Positions 3,401 to 42,002 of a stretch of DNA of 64,000 nt are shown here, in pieces. The stretch is taken from assembly GCA_963836185.1 (NCBI GenBank), contig CAWIIQ010000002.1, positions 330,144 to 394,143 on the forward strand. Reading direction: 5' to 3'. A model generated the notes under the pieces. The model saw only the letters and a program-made list of their open reading frames with translations. It was not told the DNA's origin and did not search any database. The DNA comes from Candidatus Krumholzibacteriia bacterium. GTDB taxonomy: Bacteria; Krumholzibacteriota; Krumholzibacteriia; Krumholzibacteriales; Krumholzibacteriaceae. Each line of letters begins with the position of its first letter. The first letter of the stretch is position 1. Both the position numbers and the translations under genes were made by a program.

Positions 3401-6400
3401 TGGACCAGGATGACAGGCGGGGAGTGCTGCATATCGATTTCGGAAAGATCGATGAGGATTTCCATCAGCCCGAGTTGAACCGGCACGACAACGAGAACGC
3501 TATCAACTGGACGAACGAGGCCGACACCGGGTTCGTCGGCGAAAAGTATGAAGATAGGCCGTTCAACAGGGATTTCAACGAGGACAAGTTCGACGAGGTC
3601 ATGGGCGTATACATGTGGATCAACTCGAGGTTCGGGAACTCCAGGGCTGACAACGAGGACATGAACGGGAACGGCCGCCTCGATGAGAGCAACGAGTACT
3701 ATACCATCGCGCTCGACCTCGCTGACACGGCGATAATCGATGTACAGAGGGATTTCTCCGGGGTCACCGAATACTGGAATGATCCCGAGAAGGGATCGAT
3801 CAACAGGCAAAAGAGCTGGAGGATGTACAGGCTCGATATCACCAAGGCGGCGCGGATGGGCGACCTGGCTCCCAGGCTCGACAAGATCTCCCATATGAGG
3901 ATCTGGGTGGAGAACATCGATCAGGTCCAGGCGATCACGCAGACTGACAGGTCCCCCGATAACATGGTTGAGATCACAGGGGTCAAGTTCGTCGGCAGCA
4001 GGTGGGAGTACAACAATGTAAGGGACCTTGCCAATCATGAGGTCCCGATCAATCCCGATACCCTGGACCCCGCCCATGAAGGTCAATCTGGGGACGATAA
4101 ACAACAAGGACAACCCTTCGATCTACACGACGCCATATCCGCCCGATGTCGAGGAAGGGATACAGAACCGCGAACAATCCCTGCTGTTCGCGGTCGAGAA
4201 CTTCCATCCGGGCTATTCGTTCAAGTCGATGAAGCGATTCTTCGGGGCAGGGCCTGAGTTTCATGCAGTACGAGGAGATCCAGTTCTTCATCCGCCCTGA
4301 CAACGACCTTGTCGGCGGAGTGGCAGAGCAGGACAGTATGGAGTTCTTCCTGCAGATCGCATACGACAGCCTCAACTATTATGAGATGGCCATACCCCTC
4401 AAGGACGCGCTGGCGAACAAATGGCAGTGGGTCAACATACGGATGAGCGACCTGACGAACATGAAGATCGACGCGGTGCCCGGCAAGATAACCGAAAAGG
4501 AGATCACCGATACGGCCGATCCGTCAATGACATATATGGGGAGGCTCCGGGGCGATCCCAGCCTGTTCAGGGTGAGATTTCTGTTCGCCGGGATCAGGTA
4601 TCCTCGCGGAGAAGAAAGGGCGAAGGGTACTCTGTGGTTCAACGACATCGCCCTTGGATGGGTGCGCAAGGATATCGATCATGCGGAAAGGGTCGGCTTG
4701 TCGGCGAGTTTCGCCAATGTATTGTCATTGAATGCCAGCTACCAGAGGACCGGCCCCGAGTTCAGGTCGCTGAAGCAGAAGGCAGGAAGCGGCACGACGA
4801 GCGACAATTTTCTCATGTCGGGCAAGACCGAGATCAATCACATCATCCCGACACTCGGGTTCACTATCCCTATCACCGGGAAATACAGCAAGTCGCAGTC
4901 GAAGCCGAAGTATCTCTCGCAGAGCGACGTGGAGATTGCCGACGAGGCGGTCCAGGAATCGCAGAAGACGATAAGAAACAGTTACTCATACAGTCTCTCA
5001 ATGAGCAGGCGCGGTTCGAAGAACCTGATAATGAAGCACCTGTTCGACAATCTCAAAGCGGGCGCCAGTTACTCGAAGTCCAACCTCGCATCGCCGACGG
5101 TGCTGGATACGTCGTGGTCATACAGCTGGAACACGAACTACCAGATCCAGTTCAGCAAGGACCGGAAGCTGAATCTCTTCAAGGGAATCGGTTTCAGGTA
5201 CTGGCTCACGAGCTTTTCCTACAACGCGGCCGGCTCGAAGGCTCTGAAGAACACATATTCGTACAACGGTGAAAGGTATATCAAGAGCCCGACAGGATTC
5301 TCGCACAACTGGAACAACGAGATGTCGATGAGCTACGATCCGTTCGAGTCGATCAAGATCAACTTCCGGAGGAACGAAAAACGGAACATGATGAATTACC
5401 GGGAGTTCTACGGAATTCCCATCGGAAAGCTCTACGACTACAGGGAGAGCTTCGAGTTTCAGTACCAGCCTCGCGGACAGGTGTGGCTGCTCTCGCAGTT
5501 CAACCCGAGATTCGAGTATACATCGCGATACGGAGAGAACCTCAATCCGAGTTTGAGAGGGCCCGGCGATCCCGAAGACACGAGAAACGTCAGCAGCGAG
5601 AGACAGATCAATGTCGTCTTTGATGTCGACATCGGTGGATACGCCATCGATTTCGGTAAGTTGATCAGGGTGTTCGGTGAAGACGAGACGGCAGTGAGTA
5701 TGCCAGGATCTTCCGGCGCCACGCTTGACAAGCAGAAGGAGGATTTCAGGAGCAAATTCGACGGCAGGGTGAAGTCGGACCAGGGGGAAGGCCTGGGCGA
5801 GAGAAAGTCGCTTGTCGATGATGCTCCGCAGCAGGAGCCGCCGCCAGAGGGGCAGGAAGAAGGTGAACAGGAAGAGAAGAAGGGCGCCTACTCGGATCTG
5901 ATGGTCCAGAAGCCGCGAGGGGAGATAGCCGGGCTGGGACAACCGAAGACAGACGAGGAGAAGGCCGCCGAGGCGGATACGATCAAGAAACCGAGGGGGG
6001 ACTCCTGGAGACTGGTCAAAATGGCCCTGAGGTTTGTCGGCAGGATAGATCCGATAAAGAGCGCTATCCGTATCGATGACAGGAGCAGCTATCAGCGTCT
6101 GTACGAGAGGGCGAGCCTCGCTTACCGTTTCGGTTTCGACCGTGGATCGGGCGTGATCGGTTCCTCGTGCACTGAGGAAGAATGTTCGCCTGAGAACGAT
6201 CCGAACAGAGCTTCGAAGAGGATCAATCTCGATCTCAGGTCGGGCCTCGACCTGACCAGCAACATCTCGGCCGATATACGCTTCAATATGTCGAGGAACA
6301 CCGATGAGGCCGATGCCAGGTTGACTGAGTCCGAGAACATGACCTGGCCCGACATAGCCGTGAACTGGAAGGGCCTGGAGAACTGGGGGCTGCTCAGAGG

Positions 6401-6903
6401 ACTGGTGAAATCGCAGCAACTTCACTATCAACTATATAAGGAAGACGACGAAGAGTATCGCGGTCGACAGGCAGGAATTACGCGTTGAGTCCCAACTGGA
6501 GCCTTACCTGGAAGAACACGCTCTCGACGAACCTGTCGTTCTCATTCAGCAAGCAGACGAAGATCGAAAAGAACCAGGAGATCTGGGACCAGACATGGTC
6601 GGGTAATCTCGAGCTGCGCTACGACATCAAGGGATCGAAAGGGCATATCGATACCCGGACTCGGCAGCAGGCTGTCGTTCGAAAGTAACTTTGACCACGG
6701 TACTTAACCTCGGTTACAGTTCGACGGAGAGCCATAATCTGCCTGCGTCGACTGTCTTGACGGTCTCTCCCCGTTTCACATATACTTTCAGCCGGAATAT
6801 TTCGGGAAGCCTGACGCTCAACTACAGGAGGGTGGCAGGCGGCAGGTACGGGTACATCAACCACGAGGTCGGGCTTCATGCATCCGCGGAATTCAAATTC
6901 TAG
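430..6903 (+). CDS. sprA: Type IX secretion outer-membrane translocon SprA/Sov homologue (~2150 aa), broken by about 6 single-base frameshifts
   Basis: Signal peptide. SprA motifs QQLTVNLHGTIGEKINV, DEIIKLIEMG, GLFGVKG..QIG, LGEEP, GEAYIDDMEG, NEDMNGNGRLD. Beta-barrel C-terminus ending in F. ORFs 430-4257, 4028-4300, 4263-6488, 6485-6688 and 6691-6903 join by removing single bases near 4070, 4250, 6413, 6476, 6643, 6690. Confidence 0.85.
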
Positions 6904-26084: not shown

Positions 26085-26822
26085 ATGCAAGTGAAGCTTC
26101 TGCGATTGTTTTCCGTGATGATACTCGCCATCGTGACAGCGGTCTCACTGACCGGTGTCGCGTCTGCGCAGACTCATCCATGTGGTGATGGTGCGCTGCC
26201 GTACGAGGGCAGCTGGACAGCGCCGGGCGGGGGCCTGCTCGAGGGCAGGATCTCCGAGGCGTGGTGCTACTCACCATTCTATTCCGGAGTACCCGGCAAC
26301 ACTCTGAACGCGGAGTCTTGGGACGGGGCCGCTCTGGGCACTCAGTGGAAGATATGGGGAATGTCGATCGACGCCGCCGGCGGTGTCGAAGTCGATCGCG
26401 ATGTCAACGCATCGGGATTCGGCTGGATCGACTATGTGACGAACTACGAGGGAGGCAACTTCTGGCTCGAGGGGAACAATCCCTGGAGCGACGGGACTGA
26501 CCTCGATGGGTACGTCACGGTCTGCAACGTGAACGCGAGAGTGACTGTCGTGGGCAATATGCCCGTAGCAGTCACGTCGAACATCACCATAGTAGGCGTG
26601 TTCGACCTCTGTGAGCTGTGCTCGATCGAGATATCCGCAAACTCGACGAGAATGTGGAAGACCGGGGACGCCGCCGCGATGCCGGCGGGTTATCCGCCCT
26701 TCCTCTGCAGCGCTGACAGCGGCGAGCTGCACTATACGTGCTGCCTGACCGCTACGATAATGTGCTCCGTGACCGGCACCGAAGAGTCGACATGGGGCGC
26801 GATCAAGGATATGTACAGGTAG
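26085..26822 (+). CDS. Secreted Cys-rich protein of unknown function with C-terminal TEESTWGAIK motif (paralogue 1)
   Basis: Sec signal peptide ending VASA|Q. Shares long blocks with 26986-27702. GTG at 26091 may be the true start. Confidence 0.8.
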   Translation: MQVKLLRLFSVMILAIVTAVSLTGVASAQTHPCGDGALPYEGSWTAPGGGLLEGRISEAWCYSPFYSGVPGNTLNAESWDGAALGTQWKIWGMSIDAAGGVEVDRDVNASGFGWIDYVTNYEGGNFWLEGNNPWSDGTDLDGYVTVCNVNARVTVVGNMPVAVTSNITIVGVFDLCELCSIEISANSTRMWKTGDAAAMPAGYPPFLCSADSGELHYTCCLTATIMCSVTGTEESTWGAIKDMYR

Positions 26823-26985
26823 GTCCGCTGCCTGACATAAGCGAATCCTGAACTTGCGGGGGTGATACTACTCGCAGTGCTTTTCATCCGGCCCGCTGAC
26901 GGGAGGTGATCGCAAGGTAGATTCGCAAGACGGGTTTCCGATGGATAGAATGATCCGTCACTTTATCTGGAACCGGAGGGAAATT

Positions 26986-27702
26986 ATGAAGGTTTTGAAA
27001 ATGCTGCTCATCGTTGCGGGAATGATGCTTCTCGCGACGGCTGTCTCCGCGCAGTTCTGCAACTGCGATGTTCAGTACATTCCCAACCAGGGCTACTATT
27101 CCACTTACGCGGGAACACTCCTTCCCGGGCGTGTATCCGAGGGATTCTGCGGGACCCCCGTCAATGGAGGAGTCCCGGGCAACACACAGGATGCCATGTC
27201 GTGGGATGGCGCTACCCTGGGCGGGCAGTGGCACGTATGGGGCATGGCGATCGACGCTGCCGGCGCTGGTGAAACGGGCCGCAGTCTAGACGCGACAGGC
27301 ACGGGCTGGATCGACTACGTCACGAATTATGACGGGGGCAACTTCTGGCTCAACGGTGCGTACTTCGGCTCGTCGGGATTGGATTTCACCGGCACGATCT
27401 CGTACTACAATGTCAGTGCGAGGGTCAGCCTGCTGTACGGCCAGGTAACCGGTGTCACATCGAATGTGACCTTCAACGGTCAGTTCACCGAGTGCGAGTG
27501 CTGCTACATCGAATTCGCCATCGCCAACGCGATGAGGGTATGGCCGAACATCGAGGGCACGTCGATGCCGTCTTTCTACCCGGCGTTCTACTGCGGGCCG
27601 ACAGGCGAGCTCTTCGATGCCTGCTGCATCCTGATGAGTGTCTCCTGCCCGGTGGGCACGGAAGAGACGAGTTGGGGCGCGATCAAGGAGATGCACAAGT
27701 AG
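26986..27702 (+). CDS. Secreted Cys-rich protein of unknown function with C-terminal TEETSWGAIK motif (paralogue 2)
   Basis: SD GGAGG before ATG 26986. Signal peptide ending AVSA|Q. Shared GR.SE..C, GVPGNT, SWDGA.LG.QW, GWIDYVTNY.GGNFWL blocks. Confidence 0.8.
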   Translation: MKVLKMLLIVAGMMLLATAVSAQFCNCDVQYIPNQGYYSTYAGTLLPGRVSEGFCGTPVNGGVPGNTQDAMSWDGATLGGQWHVWGMAIDAAGAGETGRSLDATGTGWIDYVTNYDGGNFWLNGAYFGSSGLDFTGTISYYNVSARVSLLYGQVTGVTSNVTFNGQFTECECCYIEFAIANAMRVWPNIEGTSMPSFYPAFYCGPTGELFDACCILMSVSCPVGTEETSWGAIKEMHK

Positions 27703-27730
27703 GCCTGCATGGAGACTGTGATTTTTCGGA

Positions 27731-27761
27731 TGTGACGGCCGGGCAAGGGTCGGCCGTCACA
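27731..27761 (+). terminator. Strong GC stem-loop downstream of paralogue 2
   Basis: Perfect 11-bp stem TGTGACGGCCG/CGGCCGTCACA. No U-tract, so it may be a stabiliser rather than a terminator. Confidence 0.45.
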
Positions 27762-28017
27762 CCCGGTTCGAGCATCGTCGGAGGGGCAACCAGGGGATTC
27801 AGCGATCACATTACAGGAGTGTGGCTTCTTGTCCGGCTGACGCCGGATCAGGAGGGGGAGAGGCATTCTTGTCTCGATTTTACACAGGGACTATCCCGAA
27901 AACATACATGACAACCGCGAGGGGAGGTATGCGATGACCGGATTGTCACCGTAACCTCGACCGCAGGGGTACGGGTTTAACTGATAGTTGCTTCTCAACT
28001 GTTTAGGAGGGGGTACC

Positions 28018-31000
28018 ATGAAAAGACTCGCGTTAGTGTCCGCACTCTGTCTTCTCGTCTGCTTTTCGCTGACGGCAGGATCGAAGGCGGCTACTCTGAA
28101 CGTCCCCGGTGACTACGCAACGGTCCAGGCGGCGATAGACGCGGCGGTAGCTGGTGACGAGATCGTCATAGCTGCCGGGACCTGGACTGAGAACATCACA
28201 ATAAACAAGACTCTCACACTGAAAGGTGCACAGGCCGGTATCGACGCTAGAGGCAGGACAGGTTCCGAGACGATCCTGACCTGCGCCTCCGGGCACCTCG
28301 TGACAGTCGCCGCGGTCGACGTGGTCCTCGATGGACTCACGATGACCGGTACCGCAGCGGCCGGACGTCTCGGCAACTGCGACAGCCACGGCTCAGGATT
28401 CGAGATGCGCAACTGCGTCATGGACGGAGTCGCGCAGAGAGGTTTCTGGTTCAACGTCACATCACCGGACATCGTGCTGGAGTACAATGTCTTCGATGCG
28501 GCCCTCTGGACCGATTCTTACTCTGTAGCGCACTTCGACGGCTCCGACGTATTCAACGATCTGTACATCGGAAACAACGAGTTCACCGGTGGTTCGATCT
28601 TCGCCGGGAACGTTACATTCAATTCATCTGGATTCCAGTTAGTCGACAACCTGTTCGATGGCTGCTCCATGAATCTCGCATCAGCGTTCGAGAACGCGAC
28701 TGTTTCGGGGAACATCTTCCGAAACAACGGCTACACGAACATGCAGGCGGCATTCAAGAACAGCACGATCTCCTACAACCAGTTCGAGGCAACGGGGCCT
28801 TCGCCCTACGCGGGCTACCCGTCCGCCTGCCTGCAGTTGTACGGGACAGATTACGGATTGGCCTCAACTAATGTGACTATCGAAGGAAACACATTCGAGT
28901 TCAACGGTTCTGCCGCGCCGGCCGATCCGGCCAACGGCATACGCTTCCGTGCGGGACTCGATGCCTCGACGATCACGGTCCGCGACAACGCCTTCATCGA
29001 CGGCGGAGCCCAGGCTACCGCCCTTGCGGTGAGGCACCAGGGGACCGGCGACGCTGACGCCTCCGGCAACTGGTGGGGATCGAATGATCCTGCTGGCGTG
29101 AACGCGCTTGCCAACGGCGGAACGCTCGTCGATTACACCCCGTGGCTCGATACTGGTACGGACAACCGTCCCGGGATCGGCTTCGAGGGCGATTTCTCCG
29201 CTCTGCACGTCGATGACGACAGCCCCCAGACGGGCATCGTCGGGATCGCGCAGGAGGGTATCGACCTCGTCGACGGCAGCACCGTCTATATCCATGACGG
29301 CACCTACGAGGAGCAGCTTGATATCGGCAAGGATCTCGTCCTCCAGGGAGACGGCCTGGGTACGGAGATCCTCTCACCCGATCTTCTGGCGCTCTCATGG
29401 GCCACGAGCAAGGATTATCGTGCGATCATATATATCCATGATGCTGATGCCGAGATCCGCGACATAACACTGAACGGAGCCGGCAAGGGGAACGCGAATA
29501 CAGGGTTCCTCGGTGTCGGGTTCAGGAACGCGGGCGGCGGCATCTATGACTGCGATATCCTCGACATCCGAAACACGCCGTTCAGCGGCGCACAGTATGG
29601 TGTCGGTATCAGTTCCTGGAACGACGATCTGACCTCACGGTCGATCGATGTCCACGGCTGTACGCTCACCGGATTCCAGAAGAACGCTATGGCGCTCAAT
29701 GCCGACGTGACGACAGGCCTTGCGGTCGATGTCCGCGGTAACACGATCACCGGTGCGGGCGCGACTACAGTAACAGCGCAGAACGGTGTGCAGGTCTATG
29801 GTGACATCGCCACCGGTACCATAGCGGACAACGTCATAAGCGGGATCGCTTACGACAATACAGCCGATGTCACGAAGTGGGTAGCGACCAGCATCCTGAA
29901 TTACTATGCTGATGTCGATATCACCGGCAATACGATCACGGCTGCCCACATGGGTATCTACAATATCGACGGTGCAGGCCTGATCAGCGAAAACGACCTG
30001 ACGATCGAGAAGATCGGTGTATACGCTTTCGGTATCATCGGCAGCGATCCGCCGAAGGCTGTTCCCTCTCCGGCAGGGATGGATGACATGCCAGTCGGTT
30101 CTTCGAGGCCTTTCGACGGGGCGCCTCTCGCCCTGCTCGATGTCGACATACTCGACAATGTCGTGACATTCACCGGCCCTGACAATACGGCGACCTTCGG
30201 TATCGAAGTAGATGCCGGCTGGGGACCGAATGATCTCGATGCGACGATCAATGGAAACATCGTCACCGGTTTCGAGGTTGGTATCGAGGTATATACCTGC
30301 GAGAGCGGTTGCGCCGCCGGTATCTTCACCGCGGTCGATGCCAGATTCAACGGCCTGTTCAGCAATACACTGGCTGTCCGTTCGAATGTCGACACGATCA
30401 CAGTCGATGCCTCGGGCAACTGGCTCGGATCAAACGTCCCCGCGGCGCTCATCGCGGGTACACTCGATTACACTCCGTGGCTCGACGTCGGAACAGACAT
30501 GAGTACCGACATCGGGTTCCAGGGTGATTTCTCCGCCCTGCACGTCGATGACGACAGCCCGCAGACGGGCCTTGTCGGAATCGTGCAGGAGGGAATCGAT
30601 ATGGTCGACGGCAGCACCGTCTACATCCACGACGGTACATACGAGGAGCAGCTCGAGATCACAAGCGATCTCGTCCTTCAGGGAGACGGCGCGGGGACTG
30701 TGATCCTTTCGCCAGACGCCCTTCCGCTCTTCTTTACCACGGGTACACTCAACAACTACCCGGTCGTCTATATCCACGACACAGACGATGTGGAGATAAA
30801 CGATCTCACCGTCGACGGCGCGGGAAAGGGTAACGCGAACTACAGGTTCCTCGGGATCGGATACCGCAACGCAGGCGGAGGAGTCTACGACTGCTCGATC
30901 CTCGGGATCATGGACACCCCGTTCAGCGGCGCGCAGCACGGCGTAGCGATGTACTTGTACAACGATGACCTGACTACAAGGTCGATCGACGTACATGGGA

Positions 31001-33873
31001 CTACGATCACCGGGTTCCAGAAGAACGCTATGGCGCTGAACGCGGAGCGAACGACACCTCTCGCCGTCGATGTGCGAGACAACATTATTACCGGTGCCGG
31101 AGAGACCGGCGTTACGGCCCAGAACGGTATCCAGGTCTCGGCGGCCCTTGGTACCGGCGATATCGAAGACAATGTGATATCGGGAATCGCTTACAACGGC
31201 GGCAGCTGGGTCGCTACCTCGATCCTCAGCTACTACGGCGTTCACGCGATAGACGGCAACACGATCACCGGTTCCCATATGGGAATCTATAATATCGATG
31301 GAGCGGGAACGATCTCGGGGAACGATGTCGAGGTCGAAATGATCGGTGGTTACTGCTGGGGTATCGTTGCCAGCGATCCACCGAAACTGAAGCCATCTCC
31401 GTTCGTCGAAGAAGAGGCTCCGCTGACCTCGGGCAGGGATATGCTCAAGGCCCCGCTAGCCGTTCTCGACGTAGATGTCATTGGCAACACGGTGACGAAT
31501 GTCGGAACGACTGTCGCAGGCACATACGGCATCGAGGCCGACGCCGGATACGGTCCCGACGACCTCGACATCACGATCAGTTACAACACTGTCTGTAACT
31601 TCGAGGCCGCGATCGAGTTCTGGGTCTGCCAGAGCACCTGCGACACGGGTGTCTTCACCAGCGCTGTGGCCAACTACAACTATATAGGCTGCGGCAATAC
31701 GTACGGTATCCGCTCTAACGCCGATTATCTCATGGTAGACGGCACGAACAACTGGTGGGGCGACGCATCCGGGCCTTATCACGCCACGCTCAATCCGACC
31801 GGTACGGGAGACGCTGTCTCCGATTACGTCGACTTTGATCCGTGGCTGGGTGCTCCCAACCAGCTCAGCGTAGTGCCGGCCTACGGCACGACGAACTGTC
31901 TCGATCCGATCACCTACACCTTCTGGCTCGACCATGTCGGTGTGGATGAGGTACGCGGAATCGACGTGACCTTCCAGGTCGACGGCGCGGTAGTGTCGGT
32001 CGGCAACGTATCGACTGATATCGTCGAAGGATCGTACCTGCCCGGAATCGGCGGGACGACCTTCTTCGCTCTCGACAATGGCGGCGGAGAGTATCAGATC
32101 AGCACGTCGATCCTCGGCGGGACCACCGGCGCCACAGGTTCCGGCGATCTCTTCACGGTAGTATTCACGCCTGTGGCCGAGGGACTCAGCGCGATCACGA
32201 TCACCGACCTCAAGGTCCGTGACGTGAACAACGTGCCTCTCAGCGTGGCGATGGTCGACGGAGAGGTCCGCATCGACTGCACCGGGCCGACGATGGAGCC
32301 GATCGCCGAGGCGGAGGGCGTCTGCTACAACGTGGCGCCCACATTCGCGAACTTCGGATTCGACGATGACCAGGCGCTCGACTGGGCCGAGTACCAGATC
32401 GACGCGGATGGATGGGTCACGATATTCACCGGCATCGATGTGCCCGAGTGGAACGACGACGGCTGGGCGCTGCCCGGCTTCGCCGGACTCTCGGAAGGGA
32501 GCCACACCGTTTACTTCCGCGTGGCAGACATGGCGGGGAACGAGAACGGAGAGGGCACCCCTGATACGTACAGCTGGTCGTTTATCAAGGATACCGTGCC
32601 GCCGGCGGCGCCTTCCGGATTCTCGGCGATGCCGGGCCACAACAAGGTCCATCTCGCCTGGACGAATCCCACGGGCGACGCTTCGTTCGTCGGCGTGGAG
32701 ATCAGGCTCGTCGCATGGGGCGACTATCCCCAGTATATCACCGCGCCTTCGTACCCCGCCGATCATCTCGGCGGAACGTTCGTCACGCAGGTGCCCGGTG
32801 AGTCGTTCGACGACGATCCGCGCGCACCGCGCGACATCTATTACTACGCGGCATTCTCGTACGACTGCGCCGGCAACTACTCGGTCTTCGACGCAGGAGC
32901 GGCGGACAGGTCGACGAGCTACTGGCTCGGCGACATCTTCGCCGGGTATGACGGCCTCGTCAACTTCAACGATCTCGGAGATTTCTCCAACGCGTTCGGC
33001 TCTACAGAGGGCGGAGGCGGAGGATGGATCGCCGAGGCGGACTTCGGGCCGACCGACGACTGGTCGAGGTTCGGAATACCTCTGCCCGACGACGCGATCG
33101 ACTTCGAGGACCTGATGATCTTCTCGATGAACTACGGCAACGTGGATCCCCTGGGATTCGACTTCGTGCCTGAGGAGAGATCGACGGAGAACCTCGAGAA
33201 CATGGTCGCCTTCGATCTCGTTCCCACGACTACCGATGCGGGAACGATCGTCTCGATCATGATGAGCAGCCGCGCCTCGACACTGAAGGGCGCGAGGCTG
33301 GTCATCGAGACTGGCGACGGATGCGAGATCGTAAATATCTCGAAGGGTGACGCTGTCGCCACGCGCGGCGATGTCTTCTTCGGGACTATCCCCTCGTTCG
33401 GCGGCATGGAGGTCTGCCTCTCGGCGCTCGGCGTCGACAAGCCTCTTGCAGGCTCCGGCGAGGTCGCGAAGATACTCGTAAAGAGTGAAGGTTCGATAAA
33501 CGTCTCGCTCGCCGAGGCCGATATCAGGGATATCGAGAACAGGCAGTTCGTTCTCGAGGGGACCGGCAGTTATGAAGGCCCCGAGGTCCCGATAGCCGAC
33601 GCGCTTAACCAGAACTTCCCGAACCCGTTCAACCCGGCGACAACGGTCGCCTTTGACCTGGCGAAGCCCGCTTCGGTCAGGATAGGGATCTACGACGTCT
33701 CGGGACGCCTGGTAAGGACGCTTATCGACAGAAGCATGGAGGCCGGGAGTCACGAGGTCGGCTGGAACGGTACGAACAATATGGGTACCGGTGTTCCCAG
33801 CGGCATGTACTTCTACAGGATGACGACATCCGACGGCTTCACGGCTACAAGGAAGATGATCCTGCTGAGGTAG
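28018..33873 (+). CDS. Large secreted multidomain protein: parallel beta-helix repeats, cohesin-like, FN3, dockerin-like, FlgD-Ig/T9SS CTD (1951 aa)
   Basis: Signal peptide. LNVPGDYATVQAAIDAA..GD.I.IAAGT pectin-lyase-fold start. NWWG/DYTPWL modules. Cohesin-like ~31858-32280. Dockerin-like 32923-33137. C-terminus LNQNFPNPFNP...WNG...SGMYFYR...KMILLR. Confidence 0.85.
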   Translation: MKRLALVSALCLLVCFSLTAGSKAATLNVPGDYATVQAAIDAAVAGDEIVIAAGTWTENITINKTLTLKGAQAGIDARGRTGSETILTCASGHLVTVAAVDVVLDGLTMTGTAAAGRLGNCDSHGSGFEMRNCVMDGVAQRGFWFNVTSPDIVLEYNVFDAALWTDSYSVAHFDGSDVFNDLYIGNNEFTGGSIFAGNVTFNSSGFQLVDNLFDGCSMNLASAFENATVSGNIFRNNGYTNMQAAFKNSTISYNQFEATGPSPYAGYPSACLQLYGTDYGLASTNVTIEGNTFEFNGSAAPADPANGIRFRAGLDASTITVRDNAFIDGGAQATALAVRHQGTGDADASGNWWGSNDPAGVNALANGGTLVDYTPWLDTGTDNRPGIGFEGDFSALHVDDDSPQTGIVGIAQEGIDLVDGSTVYIHDGTYEEQLDIGKDLVLQGDGLGTEILSPDLLALSWATSKDYRAIIYIHDADAEIRDITLNGAGKGNANTGFLGVGFRNAGGGIYDCDILDIRNTPFSGAQYGVGISSWNDDLTSRSIDVHGCTLTGFQKNAMALNADVTTGLAVDVRGNTITGAGATTVTAQNGVQVYGDIATGTIADNVISGIAYDNTADVTKWVATSILNYYADVDITGNTITAAHMGIYNIDGAGLISENDLTIEKIGVYAFGIIGSDPPKAVPSPAGMDDMPVGSSRPFDGAPLALLDVDILDNVVTFTGPDNTATFGIEVDAGWGPNDLDATINGNIVTGFEVGIEVYTCESGCAAGIFTAVDARFNGLFSNTLAVRSNVDTITVDASGNWLGSNVPAALIAGTLDYTPWLDVGTDMSTDIGFQGDFSALHVDDDSPQTGLVGIVQEGIDMVDGSTVYIHDGTYEEQLEITSDLVLQGDGAGTVILSPDALPLFFTTGTLNNYPVVYIHDTDDVEINDLTVDGAGKGNANYRFLGIGYRNAGGGVYDCSILGIMDTPFSGAQHGVAMYLYNDDLTTRSIDVHGTTITGFQKNAMALNAERTTPLAVDVRDNIITGAGETGVTAQNGIQVSAALGTGDIEDNVISGIAYNGGSWVATSILSYYGVHAIDGNTITGSHMGIYNIDGAGTISGNDVEVEMIGGYCWGIVASDPPKLKPSPFVEEEAPLTSGRDMLKAPLAVLDVDVIGNTVTNVGTTVAGTYGIEADAGYGPDDLDITISYNTVCNFEAAIEFWVCQSTCDTGVFTSAVANYNYIGCGNTYGIRSNADYLMVDGTNNWWGDASGPYHATLNPTGTGDAVSDYVDFDPWLGAPNQLSVVPAYGTTNCLDPITYTFWLDHVGVDEVRGIDVTFQVDGAVVSVGNVSTDIVEGSYLPGIGGTTFFALDNGGGEYQISTSILGGTTGATGSGDLFTVVFTPVAEGLSAITITDLKVRDVNNVPLSVAMVDGEVRIDCTGPTMEPIAEAEGVCYNVAPTFANFGFDDDQALDWAEYQIDADGWVTIFTGIDVPEWNDDGWALPGFAGLSEGSHTVYFRVADMAGNENGEGTPDTYSWSFIKDTVPPAAPSGFSAMPGHNKVHLAWTNPTGDASFVGVEIRLVAWGDYPQYITAPSYPADHLGGTFVTQVPGESFDDDPRAPRDIYYYAAFSYDCAGNYSVFDAGAADRSTSYWLGDIFAGYDGLVNFNDLGDFSNAFGSTEGGGGGWIAEADFGPTDDWSRFGIPLPDDAIDFEDLMIFSMNYGNVDPLGFDFVPEERSTENLENMVAFDLVPTTTDAGTIVSIMMSSRASTLKGARLVIETGDGCEIVNISKGDAVATRGDVFFGTIPSFGGMEVCLSALGVDKPLAGSGEVAKILVKSEGSINVSLAEADIRDIENRQFVLEGTGSYEGPEVPIADALNQNFPNPFNPATTVAFDLAKPASVRIGIYDVSGRLVRTLIDRSMEAGSHEVGWNGTNNMGTGVPSGMYFYRMTTSDGFTATRKMILLR
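29131..31850 (+). repeat. Intragenic tandem duplication of a ~445-aa beta-helix module
   Basis: DYTPWLD.GTD...IGF.GDFSALHVDDDSPQTG.VGI.QEGID.VDGSTVYIHDGTYEEQL at 29131 and 30466 (1335 nt apart). The end motif DFDPWL recurs at 31831. Confidence 0.9.
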
Positions 33874-33884
33874 TACCTCAGGAT

Positions 33885-33920
33885 CGGTGCGGGGAGCGGC
33901 CGTTCCGTTTCCCCGCACCG
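33885..33920 (+). terminator. Stem-loop after the large secreted protein
   Basis: Perfect 11-bp stem CGGTGCGGGGA/TCCCCGCACCG. No U-tract. Confidence 0.45.
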
Positions 33921-33941
33921 GTGATCTTCATGGAGAAAAGA

Positions 33942-34771
33942 TTGAAAAGACTGAAGTCAATGATCAGCAGCAGGGCAGGGGCCGCAACGGCGGCCCTCGC
34001 CCTCTGTCTGCTCTTTCCGGCACCTGCCGCGGCGCAGACCATTTCCGTATGGGTCGAACCGGCGGAGACGAGGGTCGCACCGGGCGAATTCTGTACGCTG
34101 TATGTCCATGTCGACGATCAGGTCGATTCGCTGAGTTGCGCGGAATGCTGTCTCGGATTCGATTCGACGGTCGTATCCTTTGTTTCCGCCCGCCAGGGGC
34201 AGCTCTACGACGAGGCGCCTTTCCCGAAGTTCTTCGACCTCGACGAGCCGTCGGCGGATTCGGTCCTGGCCACCGTCTGCGTACTGGGATACCGCTCTTA
34301 TATCATCGCTCCGGGGAGTATCTTCGAGGTAAGGTTCGAGGCGCTCTCTCCCGGGGTGACCGATGTGGAGATCGGGCGCATCTCGGTGCTCGACATCGAC
34401 AGGGTCCCGCTCAGACGAGGAAGTCGGGCAGGCTGGAAGGATAATCGTCACGACACAGACTGGCGGCACGGTCCCGCCGGCGGAGGAGGGAAGGCTGTCC
34501 AACTTTCCCAACCCGTTCAATCCGGTCACGACGATAGTACTCGAGCTTCCAGGCGGAAGCGGGGATCGACTCTCTACGGATATCAGGATATACGACGCGT
34601 CAGGCAGGACCGGTGCGCAGCCTTTTCAGCGGCGCGGCTCCCGCCGGGCGCAGCGAATTTCAATGGGACGGTATGAGCGACTCCGGCTCGGCCGTAAGTT
34701 CCGGTCTGTACATGGCGGTCTCGAGGACCGGGACGCTGAGGCTGGAGAGAAAACTGGTACTTATACGTTAG
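33942..34771 (+). CDS. Secreted cohesin-like domain protein with FlgD-Ig/T9SS CTD (two frameshifts near 34413 and 34609)
   Basis: Signal peptide PAAA|Q. Cohesin-like V.P...V.PGE....V.V, FD..V..F, G.IF.V.F.A..PG. Corrected frames give NFPNPFNPVTTI...IYDASGR.VRSL...WDG.SDSGSAVSSGLY...KLVLIR-stop at 34769-34771. Confidence 0.75.
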
Positions 34772-34786
34772 GATCGGGAGAAGACT

Positions 34787-35332
34787 ATGACACTTATGAG
34801 ATACAACGTCCTTCTGGCAGCCGTGGCGCTGCTCGCGATGGCTTCAAGCCCCGCCATGGCCGATGAACTGTATTTCTCGCCGGCAGACACGATGATCTGG
34901 GACTACGCTCCCTTTCCCGTTCATGTCATGATCGATGACGTAGACAGTCTCATGGGCTGGGATATATCGGTATCGTTGACCGGGAATCCCTGCGTGAAGA
35001 TACTGGGTGTCATCGAAGGCTCCCTTCCAGGCAGTAACGGCGACGAGACATTCTTCTACTGGCTCGATCAGTTGAACCCCGGCTCCATCCATGTGAACGG
35101 ATCTGTCCTCGGTACAGTCGTCGACGGCCCCGGAATCCTCTTTACGATATACTTTCAGGCTCTTCTGCCGGGTGTAGCATGGCTCGACTTCACAGACTCC
35201 GAGCTGCGCAACGGCGTCAACAGCAGCCTGGCACATGTCAGCGACAAGCGGGCGCGCATCGAGGTCCTCGAAGCGATAGCCACGGAGGAAACGACCTGGG
35301 GAGCGATAAAGTCGGTCTGCCGCGATCGATGA
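34787..35332 (+). CDS. Secreted stand-alone cohesin-like protein with C-terminal TEETTWGAIK motif
   Basis: Signal peptide PAMA|D. LYFSP, F.V.V.IDDVDSL.G.D, EGSL, G.G.LFTI.F.A..PG...L.F..SELRN..N pattern typical of cohesin-like beta-sandwiches. Confidence 0.75.
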   Translation: MTLMRYNVLLAAVALLAMASSPAMADELYFSPADTMIWDYAPFPVHVMIDDVDSLMGWDISVSLTGNPCVKILGVIEGSLPGSNGDETFFYWLDQLNPGSIHVNGSVLGTVVDGPGILFTIYFQALLPGVAWLDFTDSELRNGVNSSLAHVSDKRARIEVLEAIATEETTWGAIKSVCRDR

Positions 35333-35477: not shown

Positions 35478-38400
35478 TTGAATATCCATTCCAGGACACG
35501 CAGGGGTGTCTCTATCGCGGCCCTGGCCGCGTTCGCTGCCGTTCTCGCCGCCGGAATCTCCATGGCGGGGGAGAACGAGGATCTCCGTTTCGCGAAAAGG
35601 CTGCAGGGTGACAGGATGTTCGTCGCCGCGGCGGAGGAGTTTCTACGGTTCTCCGAGAAATACCCGGCCAGCACACTTCGAGCCTCGGCCCTCTTCTCGG
35701 CCGGCGAATGCTGGATGCAGGCAGGGAGGGCGAACGACGCCCTGGCATCATTCGAAAGACTTCTGTCCGATTACCCCGATGACGTGAACGCCTGCAAGGC
35801 GAGGTACTATCGCGGCACCATACTCAAGGCCCTGAAGAAGTTCAGGGAGGCTGCCGATGAGCTGATGATGATACCGGAAGCTTCGGGAGGTTGTCCCCTC
35901 GAGGGGAAAGCCCTTCTCGAGGCGGGGGAATGTCTTGTCGCAGCCGGCGATCCGCGCGAAGCGGTGACTGTCCTGAGACGTGTCTCCGACCCGGCGAGGT
36001 ATCCCGACCAGGCATCGAGAGCGGGGTACAGCCTCGCGGTCGCGCTCGAGAGATCGGGCAGGGATCTCGAAGCGGAGAAGATACTGAAGGAAACGGTCGA
36101 CAAGTATCCGAAGTCGCCGGTGGCCGCCCTTTCGATGATGAAGCTCGGCGACAGGTCCCTGGCCAGGGGTGAATATGACGAGGCCGCCCGGTATTTCAGG
36201 CAGGCGGCGGAAGACTACGAGGAGGATTCCCTCCGCGAAAAGGCGATGTCGAAGCTGCTCGAAGCGGCTGAAGGGGCGGGGGATAAGGAAACGGTCCTGA
36301 AGACATCCGAAGAATACCTCAAACTCTTCCCCGACGGCGCGGGCAGGCCCCGGGCCTATGAGCTCGGGATATTAGCCGCCAGGGAGACCGGAGACCGTGA
36401 CAGGGCGATATCGATGATCGATTCGTGGCGGTCCGAAGAGGGGTACTCCGACCCGGAGGGAGAGTTCAGCCTGGTGAGGGCATCTCTCCTCGAGGAAAAA
36501 GGAAAGACTGAAGATGCCCTTGCAGAGCTTGCATGGTTCAGGCGCTCATATCCAGCCTCAGGATTTCTCGTCGACGCTCTCCTTCTTGAAGGGCGCCTCC
36601 TTGAAAAATCTAAAAAATATGAAGATGCCCTGCACCGCTATAATGTCGCGCTGGCTGAGGGAGCCTCCGGCGAAGAGAAGCTCGAGACCCTCGATCGCCT
36701 GGCGGAGATATCGGTCGTCCAGGAAGCCGATACCCTTTCCGCATTGAGATACTGGTCGATGATCGCCTCGGCTGACCGGGGCGGAGAAAAGGGTGAGGAG
36801 GCGCTCTGGCGCTCGGCAGGGGTAAGGGAGGCGGCGGGCGATATGCGTGGCGCGGCTGCCGATCTTCGCAGGATAGAGAAGGAATATACAGGCGGCAGAT
36901 ATGCCGTCGAGGCCGCTGAGAAAGCGGGCAGGATCGAGCTGCTTGCCGGCCCGGGTGGAGACGCTGAAGGAGCGCTCGCCCGTCTCGCTGTCGATGCCTC
37001 CATCACCGGCGGGGCGCGATATCTCGAGGCTGGAAGGATCCTCCTCGAGGAGGCGGGAAGGTTCAGGGAGGCTGCCGTATATCTCGAGAGGGCGATCGGG
37101 TCCGATCTGCCTGACGCCGAAAAGGCGAGGGCAAGGTACTATCTCGGCAATGCCCGGGCCCTCGGGTACGAGATATCTGGCGCGACAGGCAGCCCGGACG
37201 ACGGCTTGAAGAAGAGCGCGATCGATGAGTGGTGGAAGGTAGCGCGAGAGGCCCCCGGCACTGAATGGGGAGGAAAATCGCACCGCGCGTGGCTCGGATA
37301 CAGGCTCGATGAATGGGACATCAACGGGAAACTGAAGAGGCTCAACGAGTTTCTCGGCTATTACGGTTCGGACGGCGGGCACTACTGGTGGGCGCAGGAG
37401 AAGAAGCTCGAGAGTCTTTACGACGCCGCTCCAGGAAGGGACAACTGGGCGGCAGACAGCGCGCTGACGATCGCGGGGCTGTTCCTTGACAATACCTCGC
37501 CGAAGGATGGAAAGAAGGAGGCTCTTCTCAGGTCGGGTTACCTCTACCGGATGACCGGTGATACGGAAAGAGCCGAATCGGCGCTCGCTTCGTTCGCGCG
37601 GACTTATCCTGACGATTACAGGACCGCGTCGGTCTATTACGATCTCGGCGAGACAAGGCTCAAGAGAAAAGATTACGCGAAGGCGCTCGAGGCCTACCAG
37701 TCATGCCTGACGAGGGATCCCCCGAGGAATCTCGCGGGCAGGTGCCTGCTCCGCTCGGGAGACTGCCTCTACTATACGCACGAATATGCTGGGGCTGCGG
37801 GGAAATACGCCGCCCTCGCGAGCCACGATCCTCCGACCGGGCTCGAAGACGAGGCGTCTTACAGGCAGGCCCTCGCCCTGAGGCAGGCCGGGAGGGGGGA
37901 CGAGGCCGATGCTATACTCGGTTCCCTTTTCAAACGCGAAGATCTGCCCGCCGGGTTGCGGGCGCGGGTCCTCGAACTCACCGGCCGCCGGATGATCGAT
38001 ACGGGAGACTACGCATCGGCACGCGGAGTCTTCGAGGAACTCTGCAGCGCCCGCAAGAGTCCGGGTCCGCTGACGCTGCTCGGTGAGACGCTTCTCGAAC
38101 TCGATCAGACGAAAGAGGCGGCCAGGCGTTTCGATGAGGCGATCAAGCTCGAGGGTGCCGACACCTGCCGTATACTCTCCGGGAGGTCGAGGTCGTACTT
38201 CGCCGCCGGTGACGACGAAGAAGGGAAACCGCGATCTCGACGAGATGACAAGGCTCTGCCCCGGCTATCCCGGGACCGCGCTCGCCCTTCTGGCGCGCGG
38301 CGAATCGGCTGTCGAGGCGGGAGACTGCGAGGGTGCTGTCGCGACCCTCGAATACCTTCGTGAGCACTATGCCGGGACCGATGCGGCGGCGGGCGCCCTC

Positions 38401-39126: not shown

Positions 39127-39157
39127 TCAGCAGGTGACGTGCAGGAAGGGCAGCCGA

Positions 39158-42002
39158 ATGGCTCGTGAAGACCTCGTCGTCAGAGGCGCCAGGGAACACA
39201 ATCTCAAGAATATCACAGTGACCGTGCCGCGCGGGAAGCTCGTCGTGATAACGGGGCTGAGCGGTTCGGGCAAGTCGTCTCTCGCCTTCGATACGATCTA
39301 TGCCGAAGGGCAGAGACGTTATGTCGAGTCGCTGTCGAGCTACGCGAGGCAGTTCCTCGAGCAGATGGAGAAACCGGACGTCGACTCGATCGAGGGACTC
39401 TCGCCGGCGATCTCGATCGACCAGAAGACCACCTCGAGGAATCCCCGTTCTACGGTCGGGACGATCACCGAGATCCATGACTACCTCAGGGTCCTCTTCG
39501 CCCGCGCCGGCGAGCCTCACTGTCCCGGGTGCGGGCGCCCGATCAGCCGCCAGACCGTCGCGCAGATCGTCGACAGGCTGACCGCCGCCGGAGAGGGAAA
39601 GAAGCTCGTCATCATGGCCCCCGTAGTGAGGGGGCGCAAGGGTGAGCACAAGGCCCTGCTGGCGAAGCTGGCGAAGGAGGGCTTCGCGCGGGTGAGGGTC
39701 GACGGTGAGATGCACGACCTGGGCGACGAGATCGCCATCGACAAGAAACGCAAGCACGATATAGAAGTGATAGTCGACCGCGTCATAATCAAGGATGGCG
39801 TCGAGAGGCGGCTGGCCGACTCGGTCGAGACAGCGGCGAAGGCGGGAGAAGGGATAATCCTTGTCCAGCAGGGAGGAGAGGAGACCCTGTACAGTCTCGA
39901 GTACGCCTGCCCGTGGTGCGGCGGCGGACTCGGCGAGATATCACCGAGGATGTTCTCGTTCAACTCCCCGTACGGGGCCTGCCCGACATGCCACGGCCTC
40001 GGCACTACGAACGATTTCGCCGAGGAGCTTCTCGTGCCCGATCCGACCCTCAGTGTTGCCGAGGGAGCTCTCGCATCGATAGGATCGCCGAAGGCGAACT
40101 GGTACAGGCTGCGGCTCGAGGCACTCGCCGAGCTGCATGGTTTCTCGCTGACAAGACCTTTCGGCAAGCTCTCGAAGAATGCCCGCCGGATGATACTCGA
40201 GGGGACCGACGACGAGATAGTCGTCCAGTACGATTTTGAACGGGGCAAGGGGGAGTACTACACAAATTGGGAGGGTGTCGTCCCGAACCTCCGCCGCCGG
40301 TATCACCAGACCCGCTCCGATGCGATAAGGCGCTGGATCGAGACGTTCATGACTTCGAGTCCATGCTCTGACTGCCATGGAACACGGCTGAAGCCCGATA
40401 GCCTCTCCGTTACCCTCGCCGGCAGGAATATCGCCGAGATATCGTCTCTGACTATCGAGAGGGCGTCGGAGTTCTTCGGATCGCTCGGCCTCGAGGGGAA
40501 CAGGGCGATCATCGGCGGCCCGCTCCTTCGTGAGATCACTTCGAGGCTGCAGTTCCTCCGCAACGTCGGCCTCGACTACCTCTCGCTCGATCGTTCCGCC
40601 GGAACGCTTGCCGGCGGCGAGGCGCAGAGGATCAGGCTCGCCACGCAGATAGGCTCGAAGCTCGTCGGTGTCCTCTACATACTCGACGAACCGTCGATCG
40701 GCCTTCATCAGCGCGACAACGCGAGGCTGATCGCTACGCTCAAGGAACTGCGGGACGCGGGCAATACAGTTATCGTCATCGAGCACGACAGGGACACGAT
40801 CCTCGCGGCCGACTACGTCATCGATCTCGGGCCCGGCGCGGGAGAGCACGGTGGCGAAGTGGTCGCCGAAGGGACTCCGGCAGGAATATCCACCGTCAAG
40901 GAAAGCCTCACCGGGAAGTACCTCTGCCAGCGAGAGATACTTCGAGCTGAAGAGCGGCGAAGGGAGGGGCACGGGCGAGTCGCTCATCCTCAGGGGCGCG
41001 AGCGAGCACAACCTCAAGGAAATAGACGTCGAGTTCCCTCTCGGCAGGCTGATATGCGTCACCGGCGTCTCCGGCTCGGGCAAGAGCACACTCGTCGGGG
41101 ATATCCTCTACAGGGCCCTTCACAGGATATTCCATCGAAGCACGAGGCTCGCGGGGAGGCACGACAGGATCGACGGCGTCGAACATATCGACAAGGTGAT
41201 CAACATAGACCAGTCTCCGATCGGGCGGACGCCGAGGTCGAATCCCGCTACATACACGGGGCTGTTCGGCCCGATCAGGGATCTTTTCTCCAGGCTCCCC
41301 GAGTCGCAGGTCCGCGGCTACAAGCCGGGGAGATTCAGCTTCAACGTCAAGGGCGGAAGGTGCGAGACGTGCAGGGGAGAGGGGATGATCAAGGTAGAGA
41401 TGCATTTTCTCCCCGACGTCTATGTCCACTGCCAGCAGTGCAAGGGCAGGCGCTACAACAGGGAGACCCTCGAGGTCACATTCAAGAACATCAATATCGC
41501 CGAGGTACTCGAAATGACCGTTGACGAAGCGTTCGATTTCTTTAAGAATATCCCCTCCGTCAGGAGAAAGCTGAAGGTGCTCAGGGAGGTCGGGCTCGGG
41601 TACATCCGGCTGGGGCAGCCGGCGACGACGCTGTCCGGGGGCGAGGCGCAGAGGGTCAAGCTCTCGTCCGAGCTTTCCAAGGTGAGCACCGGAAGGACGC
41701 TGTATATACTGGACGAGCCGAGCACAGGCCTTCACTTCGAGGACGTCAAGATGCTGATGAGTGTTCTCGACAGGCTCGTCGAGAGGGGAAACACGGTGCT
41801 CGTCATAGAGCACAATCCGGATATCATCAGGCTCGCCGATCATATCATCGACCTCGGCCCCGAGGGCGGGGAACGTGGCGGCGAGGTAGTATACACCGGT
41901 TCACCGGCCGGCATCACTGGCTGCCGGGATTCGCACACAGGCGAGATGCTCAAGCAGTATGTGCGGGCCGGGAAAAAGAAAAGTAAAAAGAACAAGTCCT
42001 GA
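39158..42002 (+). CDS. uvrA: Excinuclease ABC subunit A (frameshift near 40940)
   Basis: [22 protein letters not shown], Zn fingers, [12 protein letters not shown], second ABC half GVSGSGKS and [11 protein letters not shown]. Confidence 0.96.

Follow-up and report, generated by a model that had tools for sequence, protein, structure and literature searches.

A 15-residue C-terminal tail on secreted proteins of a Candidatus Krumholzibacteriia bacterium: a likely address label tied to motor-less type IX secretion genomes in the sample tested

Introduction

A 64,000-nucleotide stretch of a Candidatus Krumholzibacteriia genome (GenBank assembly GCA_963836185.1, contig CAWIIQ010000002.1, positions 330,144 to 394,143 of the forward strand; hereafter, the window) encodes three proteins that end in nearly the same tail of about 15 residues, which raises the question of what such a tail is for. 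An earlier note on this DNA had read it as an export or anchoring signal, and more precisely as a minimal equivalent of the C-terminal domain (CTD) that type IX secretion cargo carries. Our analysis suggests that the tail is likely an undescribed address label, that it is tied to type IX genomes without the motor (SprA present, GldM not detected), and that it corresponds to the leader of a CTD rather than to the CTD itself.

Results

The tail in the window and in its genome

The tailed genes of the window and their tails are as follows.

26085 to 26822, + strand: secreted Cys-rich protein of 245 residues, of no known family, tail-bearing (open reading frame call; Pfam and NCBIfam scans)
26775 to 26822, + strand: tail 1, stop codon included; C-terminal sequence GTEESTWGAIKDMYR
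26986 to 27702, + strand: paralogue of the preceding protein, 238 residues, tail-bearing
27655 to 27702, + strand: tail 2, stop codon included; C-terminal sequence GTEETSWGAIKEMHK
34787 to 35332, + strand: cohesin-like secreted protein of 181 residues, tail-bearing
35279 to 35332, + strand: tail 3, stop codon included; C-terminal sequence ATEETTWGAIKSVCRDR

All three proteins have a signal-peptide-like start and no hydrophobic helix further on, and they share the near-identical end that the earlier note, counting from the T, had described. The first two are paralogues (49% identical) without a Pfam or NCBIfam family, and 48/48 homologues of the 26085–26822 protein end in the tail, the Trp being missing in one. 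The third is unrelated to the first two.

The genome (3.5 Mb, 92.5% complete) was searched through a set of 3097 automatically picked genes comprising 943,202 residues. The pattern [ST]W[GS]x[ILV][KR] lay within the last 16 residues of 29 of these genes and matched internally only 3 times in the whole set; therefore, the tail is not a product of chance. When the genome was scanned in all six frames, 34 matches were terminal and 9 internal, 8 of the latter in short or doubtful frames. About 31 proteins of the genome end in the tail, and the bodies of the 32 tailed open reading frames that were retained fell by BLAST into 21 unrelated clusters. By a crude heuristic, a signal peptide was in frame in 24 of the 32 and in a neighbouring frame just upstream in 6 of the other 8; on the automatic gene starts, signal peptides were present in 18/28 tailed genes vs. 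316/1310 size-matched soluble genes. No hydrophobic helix occurred past residue 40 in 31 of the 32 proteins, and none occurred within the tail. Among the passengers are choice-of-anchor W, lamin-tail, thioester, Ig-like, FG-GAP and beta-helix domains, of kinds typical of surface proteins. Anchor swapping was not seen among the choice-of-anchor W homologues: of 285, the best 120 all have the tail. By sequence, the tail is a real, portable, non-transmembrane C-terminal signal. The portability onto unrelated bodies that the earlier note proposed was borne out by these counts.

A position matrix of this genome's tails gave the consensus [VTI]-[GAS]-T-E-E-[ST]-[ST]-W-G-x-I-K-x-hydrophobic-x-basic-stop, with the Trp mostly 8–9 residues before the protein end. 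The tail has two parts: X/(G,A,S)-T-E at its start, which is like the site cut by the PorU sortase, and then W-G-x-I-K as a basic helix. A PDB sequence search with the tail found no relative, scans of Pfam, NCBIfam and PDB gave no description of it, and no account of it turned up in the literature searched, subscription journals and supplements lying outside that coverage.

Range across phyla

Homologues with a name suggest Candidatus Krumholzibacteriota as the source phylum, in which the tail profile matched 149 of 151 genomes. Across GTDB the exact pattern yielded 108 loci, with 110 of 112 distinct matches terminal; where named, the loci were mostly labelled Krumholzibacteriota, Eisenbacteria and Latescibacterota. 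Among 126 cluster representatives, 123 were terminal by regular expression and the other three were two terminal variants and one repeat protein. A Poribacteria variant, of consensus [LFT]-[APS]-V-[ED]-P-x-x-K-L-x-T-T-W-G-x-I-K, gave at least 129 matches, 128 of them terminal among the matches listed. Of 58 genomes chosen because they bear the tail or CTDs of the PNPF type, nine gave 11–62 pattern matches and a few others 4–9; most of those picked for their CTDs were near the control level.

A single-copy tailed protein in motor-less genomes

Twelve genomes, labelled Ignavibacteria, Melioribacter, Rhodothermales, Calditrichaceae, Kryptoniota, Hatepunaea and others, hold a conserved single-copy protein of 130–140 residues made up of a signal peptide, an FN3-like domain and the ending T-W-G-S-I-K-A-x-F, which low numbers of pattern matches had concealed. 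A PDB sequence search with this protein found no relative. In type IX cargo, this same FN3-like body stands in front of CTDs (Atlas; about 11 CTD proteins of this genome), and tail and CTD alternate behind it. In two Cloacimonadota genomes an ExeM/NucH-like OB-fold protein bears the tail instead of the FN3-like one (L474:4915-5625 and L475:4922-5638).

To place this protein against the type IX genes we used a wider sample of 151 Bacteroidota-type genomes, from the phylum of one of the twelve. Results showed the single-copy tailed protein in 55/83 genomes with SprA and without GldM, in 0/37 with GldM and in 0/31 without SprA, and all 55 carriers had both an SprA and a PorU match. In five genomes without the single-copy protein, a loose tail pattern gave only control-level counts. 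In the tested sample, the tail is tied to motor-less type IX genomes. Since these groups of genomes are probably a few clades, this distribution is to be read as a pattern and not as a statistical test. The earlier note had named three findings that would refute a sorting signal, namely restriction to one homologous family, equal occurrence in cytoplasmic proteins or at internal positions, and frequent presence in genomes that lack SprA/PorV and share no other export gene; where tested, none of the three was seen.

Relation to type IX CTDs

The following genes of the window bear on this relation.

28018 to 33873, + strand: type IX cargo of 1951 residues with a type A-like CTD and without the tail (context; TIGR04183)
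33960 to 34771, + strand: cohesin-like protein whose full CTD, at its end, is frameshifted (three-frame translation)
430 to 6903, + strand: SprA/Sov translocon gene, in several frames (context; TIGR04189)

SprA, which the earlier note had placed in this genome, is indeed encoded in the window (430–6903; TIGR04189, 329 bits vs. a cut-off of 200), as a split gene. The genome's PorU scores above its cut-off, has its His and Cys in place and is adjoined by PorV, and a PorZ-like gene is also present. Genome totals were 11 PorV-family, 7 C25 and about 110 CTD-like matches, the 28018–33873 product being one that exceeds its TIGR04183 cut-off (35 vs. 23 bits). GldM and GldN were not found in the genome, GldK and GldL not having been searched for; the GldM search does find its targets in other genomes, and the GldN search had no positive control.

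The shortest published CTDs, from Prevotella intermedia (PMC11969387), have 40–55 residues with motifs B, D and E as three strands, were modelled on PorV, and need the strands with these motifs for PorV binding. Motifs B, D and E are absent from the tail (alignment, column counts), and no tailed protein of the genome gave a TIGR04183 or PF18962 match; a CTD of this type has an Ig-like sandwich of about 70 or more residues, and the tail has 15. Since the PorV-binding sandwich is absent, the tail is not a type IX CTD.

What the tail does match is the leader of a CTD, because of a paralogue swap, its PorU-like start, and a leader found before full CTDs in Poribacteria. The swap is seen in the window itself, where the third tailed protein resembles the product of the adjoining 33960–34771 gene (30% identity over 120 residues, E 2e-6); since the two are adjoining paralogues, one ending in a CTD and the other in the tail, CTD and tail have been swapped on one body. 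As for the start, PMC4560394 gives PorU cut sites as X/(G,S,A), among them T/ATEQ, and PMC11969387 describes short Prevotella intermedia CTDs cut at a flexible T/GI-type site. Position -6 is G, A or S in 28 of 31 tails, with T next in 26 and E in 26, a start that resembles the published X/(G,S,A) sites and at which cleavage may occur. Finally, 30/31 Poribacteria genomes have [WLF]-G-x-[IVLM]-K (G and K being set by the search pattern) at a fixed distance upstream of a complete CTD; in several instances, what stands there is the entire tail, Trp included.

A lipoprotein pair that tracks the tail

At C3:84814-89684 of this genome, a split barrel gene is followed by a lipoprotein gene, LpA, and then by two to three copies of a second, LpB. 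This genome's LpA is orthologous to the LpA of the 151-genome sample (probability 98.7%). With a narrow LpB profile, 5 distant genomes gave no match, so that the search relied on the motif and profile of LpA. The LpA pattern matched 43 of the 151-genome sample, or 42 once an out-of-frame match was dropped; 41 of these 42 hold the single-copy tailed protein, and LpA occurred in only 1 of the 28 SprA-positive, GldM-negative genomes without it. The C-terminus of LpA is formed by [ST]-W-S-x-L-K and a further four to five residues, with 8–9 residues to the end in 17/19, which is the spacing of the tail, and an LpB-like gene was called directly after LpA in 13/19 loci read. The motif reads T-W-G-x-L-K in one Cloacimonadota and one Eisenbacteria genome, the Eisenbacteria copy also standing behind a related barrel. 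A PDB sequence search found no solved relative of LpA.

LpB has no tail-like helix and is predicted confidently to adopt an NTF2-like fold (pLDDT 85). In proteins P0241, P0264 and P0294 and in those of L050, LpB-type domains are followed immediately by the canonical tail, an arrangement that, judged by sequence, appears to be a fusion of receptor-ligand type. In the Eisenbacteria genome G152 (L050, L533), tandem NTF2-like lipoproteins follow barrel and LpA; some are tail-terminated, and one has the tail internally, where it separates duplicated domains. A second large PorU-like gene or the single-copy tailed gene is found within 15–35 kb of LpA in several genomes of Ignavibacteria type (G253:C12, G388:C1, G440:C73, G412:C3, G396:C10, G432:C26).

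Neighbouring genes and further type IX loci

Downstream of the third tailed gene, 35478–38363 encodes a long, exported TPR-repeat protein. Single-base frameshifts split many genes, including sprA, the cohesin-CTD gene, uvrA, the barrel gene beside LpA and several tailed genes (window 430–6903, 33960–34771 and 39134–42000; C3:88068-90200 of this genome), which suggests assembly errors and not pseudogenes; for sprA in the window, an assembly error is probable.

Elsewhere in the genome, porU and porV lie in an operon-like run (C1:2025126-2041052, L142) with an M6-like CTD protein, two small barrel-like proteins, an NHL-like protein, an Omp85 gene, and a 1136-residue protein with a terminal Phe and no family match. 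Several PorV paralogues stand directly downstream of a CTD-bearing gene (L145, L148, L025), like dedicated pairs of cargo and shuttle. The one on C4 is followed by ExbB and ExbD/TonB-like genes, which are a possible energy source for a motor-less system. The lipoprotein at C1:1014653-1016506 has a start that appears to be like that of PorW/SprE.

PorU-like genes were found in 41/41 Poribacteria. These genomes (G151 and 40 others; L288–L291) typically have three very large PorU-like frames of about 1750–2200 residues with long insertions, and G151 has a divergent SprA-like frame of 2285 residues that falls under the family cut-off.

Discussion

Proposed mechanism

We propose that the tail is a docking signal whose helix is read by the candidate receptor LpB for motor-less type IX export or attachment, a chain of events that, taken whole, we hold to be plausible yet a little short of probable. 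The signal peptide, as the sequence shows, takes the passenger to the periplasm. There, the W-G-x-I-K helix may bind LpB at the site otherwise filled by the tail-like C-terminal helix of LpA. The pair would replace the missing GldK/N/L/M recruitment module and might hand the cargo on, either to SprA or to the large barrel whose gene adjoins those of the pair, steps that we put forward more cautiously. Lastly, a PorU-type sortase would cut before the (G/A/S)-T-E-E start and fix the passenger to the cell surface. LpB as receptor and a PorU-type enzyme as cutter are compatible.

A wider form of this proposal is that motor-less type IX systems of the FCB group and Poribacteria possess a second, undescribed sorting lane, in which a Trp helix of 15 residues, having its origin in the C-terminal helix of LpA, is captured by LpB and passed through a dedicated outer-membrane barrel or SprA to a PorU-type sortase, both the CTD and GldKLMN being replaced; this we consider tentative and, on balance, doubtful.

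Several observations weigh against the docking proposal. The first half of the tail matches the genome's own CTD linkers only modestly (15/89 vs. 4/89 control windows, p 0.005), its spacing to the Trp varies between phyla, and with a Trp-only pattern the fused leader and CTD was not found in the source phylum (2/201 genomes, both out of frame). Since the mean hydrophobic moment is maximal near 120 and not 100 degrees, the tail is not a plain amphipathic helix. As for the lipoproteins, the strict LpA pattern missed 14 of the 55 genomes having the single-copy protein; the LpA of this genome has a degenerate helix, with Ser for Trp; and its LpB matches Ignavibacteria LpB weakly (profile probability 11.6%, E 0.0026). 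Although Poribacteria are the most tail-rich, a search of one of their genomes brought no better LpA/LpB match than a weak one to a non-lipoprotein (E 1e-3), and no barrel gene adjoins LpA in the 3-kb Ignavibacteria-type loci read. Moreover, the co-occurrence comes from a few clades and not from many independent tests.

Alternative explanations

The tail could instead be read directly by the type IX attachment machinery, with a PorV paralogue as shuttle, PorU or a second, PorU-like C25 enzyme cutting and anchoring, and LpA as no more than another tagged protein. The genome's 11 PorV-family and 7 C25 matches agree with this, as do the PorU-cut-site likeness of the tail, the SprA and PorU matches in 55/55 genomes with the single-copy protein and the PorU-like genes of all 41 Poribacteria. 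In addition, a PorU-like C25 gene lies downstream of three tagged genes at C2:78708-84740, and its relatives adjoin tagged genes in 8/108 loci from 6 genomes; this enzyme may cut the tail. Yet SprA, PorU and the PorV family occur just as much in genomes with the motor, and in most of the 28 motor-less ones in which the tailed protein is missing, and the tail lacks the CTD strands required for PorV binding (PMC11969387). PorV2 (NF052325), considered as a dedicated reader, does not track the tail and was ruled out, being common in tail-less, motor-bearing genomes. We judge direct reading to be somewhat unlikely.

A second alternative is that the tail does no more than keep small proteins bound to LpB at the periplasmic face of the outer membrane, with neither secretion nor cutting, its link to type IX secretion being one of shared ancestry. 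The LpA/LpB evidence would serve this explanation equally; the helix is carried by LpA, itself a lipoprotein, and the tailed proteins of this genome are small: the largest has 393 residues, and nothing exceeds 406 among the 126 cluster representatives. However, a universal size limit for passengers is ruled out by Poribacteria, where the tail occurs on frames of 736–1030 residues. The passengers are also surface-type domains shared with CTD cargo, and the motif starts with a PorU-like site and precedes full CTDs in Poribacteria. A purely periplasmic tether therefore seems improbable.

It is more improbable still that the tail is a mini-dockerin helix that binds either a CTD in trans or the cohesin-like domains on scaffolds exported by a CTD, with tailed proteins hitch-hiking or assembling on the surface. 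Cohesin-like domains do occur in the window's cluster, one of them at about residues 1300–1420 of the 1951-residue CTD cargo and one, by a weak Pfam cohesin match, in the 33960–34771 product, and a CTD gene is found no more than 5 kb from 10/31 tail genes vs. 615/3006 other genes. This excess is small, however. Furthermore, the single-copy protein and LpA end in the tail in lineages without an expanded tail repertoire, and an AlphaFold model of the Poribacteria leader with its CTD gave a leader helix of low confidence (pLDDT under 60) and showed no packing in cis.

That the tail is a generic membrane-binding helix or a C-terminal proteolysis tag with no dedicated receptor is scarcely credible: its C-terminal half does have a basic character (mean +1.9) and hydrophobic residues at intervals, but its distribution is restricted to SprA-positive, GldM-negative genomes, and the near invariance of W, G, I and K between phyla, although passengers diverge, indicates a protein pocket.

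Significance

The tail offers a surface or export label that can be read from the genomes of several abundant uncultured phyla, with 10 to 60 or more proteins per genome, and LpA, LpB and the single-copy tailed FN3 protein are candidate parts for motor-less type IX systems having SprA, PorV and PorU. Since the single-copy version occurs in genomes labelled as groups with cultured members (Melioribacter, Ignavibacteria, Rhodothermales and Calditrichaceae), the mechanism is testable. A tag of only 15 residues that brought about export or covalent surface display would also be of use in engineering.

Comparison with known systems

The tail belongs to neither the CTD nor the tripartite families. 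Tripartite signals (LPXTG, PEP-CTERM, GlyGly-CTERM, MYXO-CTERM) combine a motif, a transmembrane helix and a basic cluster. The tail resembles them as a short, portable C-terminal tag on surface-type domains, with choice-of-anchor W among its passengers, but it has no transmembrane helix, and none of the 32 tailed proteins gave an NCBIfam sorting-signal match, in keeping with the earlier note. A dockerin consists of a duplicated calcium-binding loop plus helix; in contrast, the tail is a single 15-residue unit with no Pfam dockerin match. LpB, in its predicted model, has the cone-shaped fold of NTF2/SnoaL-like proteins (PDB 3d9r, 2r4i), though with an identity of only 8–14%, and an NTF2-like fold serving as receptor of a sorting signal was not found in the literature searched.

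The closest parallel is the type A CTD of the type IX system (TIGR04183, PF18962; here also in the FlgD_ig-like form PF13860), with its PorV shuttle and PorU sortase (NF033709, NF033707). Like that domain, the tail is C-terminal on unrelated Sec-exported passengers, is exchangeable with a CTD on the same body, has a PorU-like X/(G,A,S) start, and was found only in SprA-bearing genomes among those tested. Unlike it, the tail has 15 residues and not about 70–100, forms no beta-sandwich, lacks motifs B, D and E, matches none of these models, is absent from the 37 GldM-bearing genomes sampled, and tracks an NTF2-like lipoprotein pair. Of the earlier note's interpretation, what is supported is a portable signal without a membrane helix, at the C-terminus of Sec-exported proteins and linked to type IX genomes; a minimal CTD equivalent, read as a CTD is read, is not supported, the best co-occurring partner being the lipoprotein pair and not PorV. 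The short CTDs of Prevotella intermedia (PMC11969387) show that a type IX signal may be reduced in size without losing its cleavage; the tail, by comparison, would keep the cut-site end and add a Trp helix in place of the strands.

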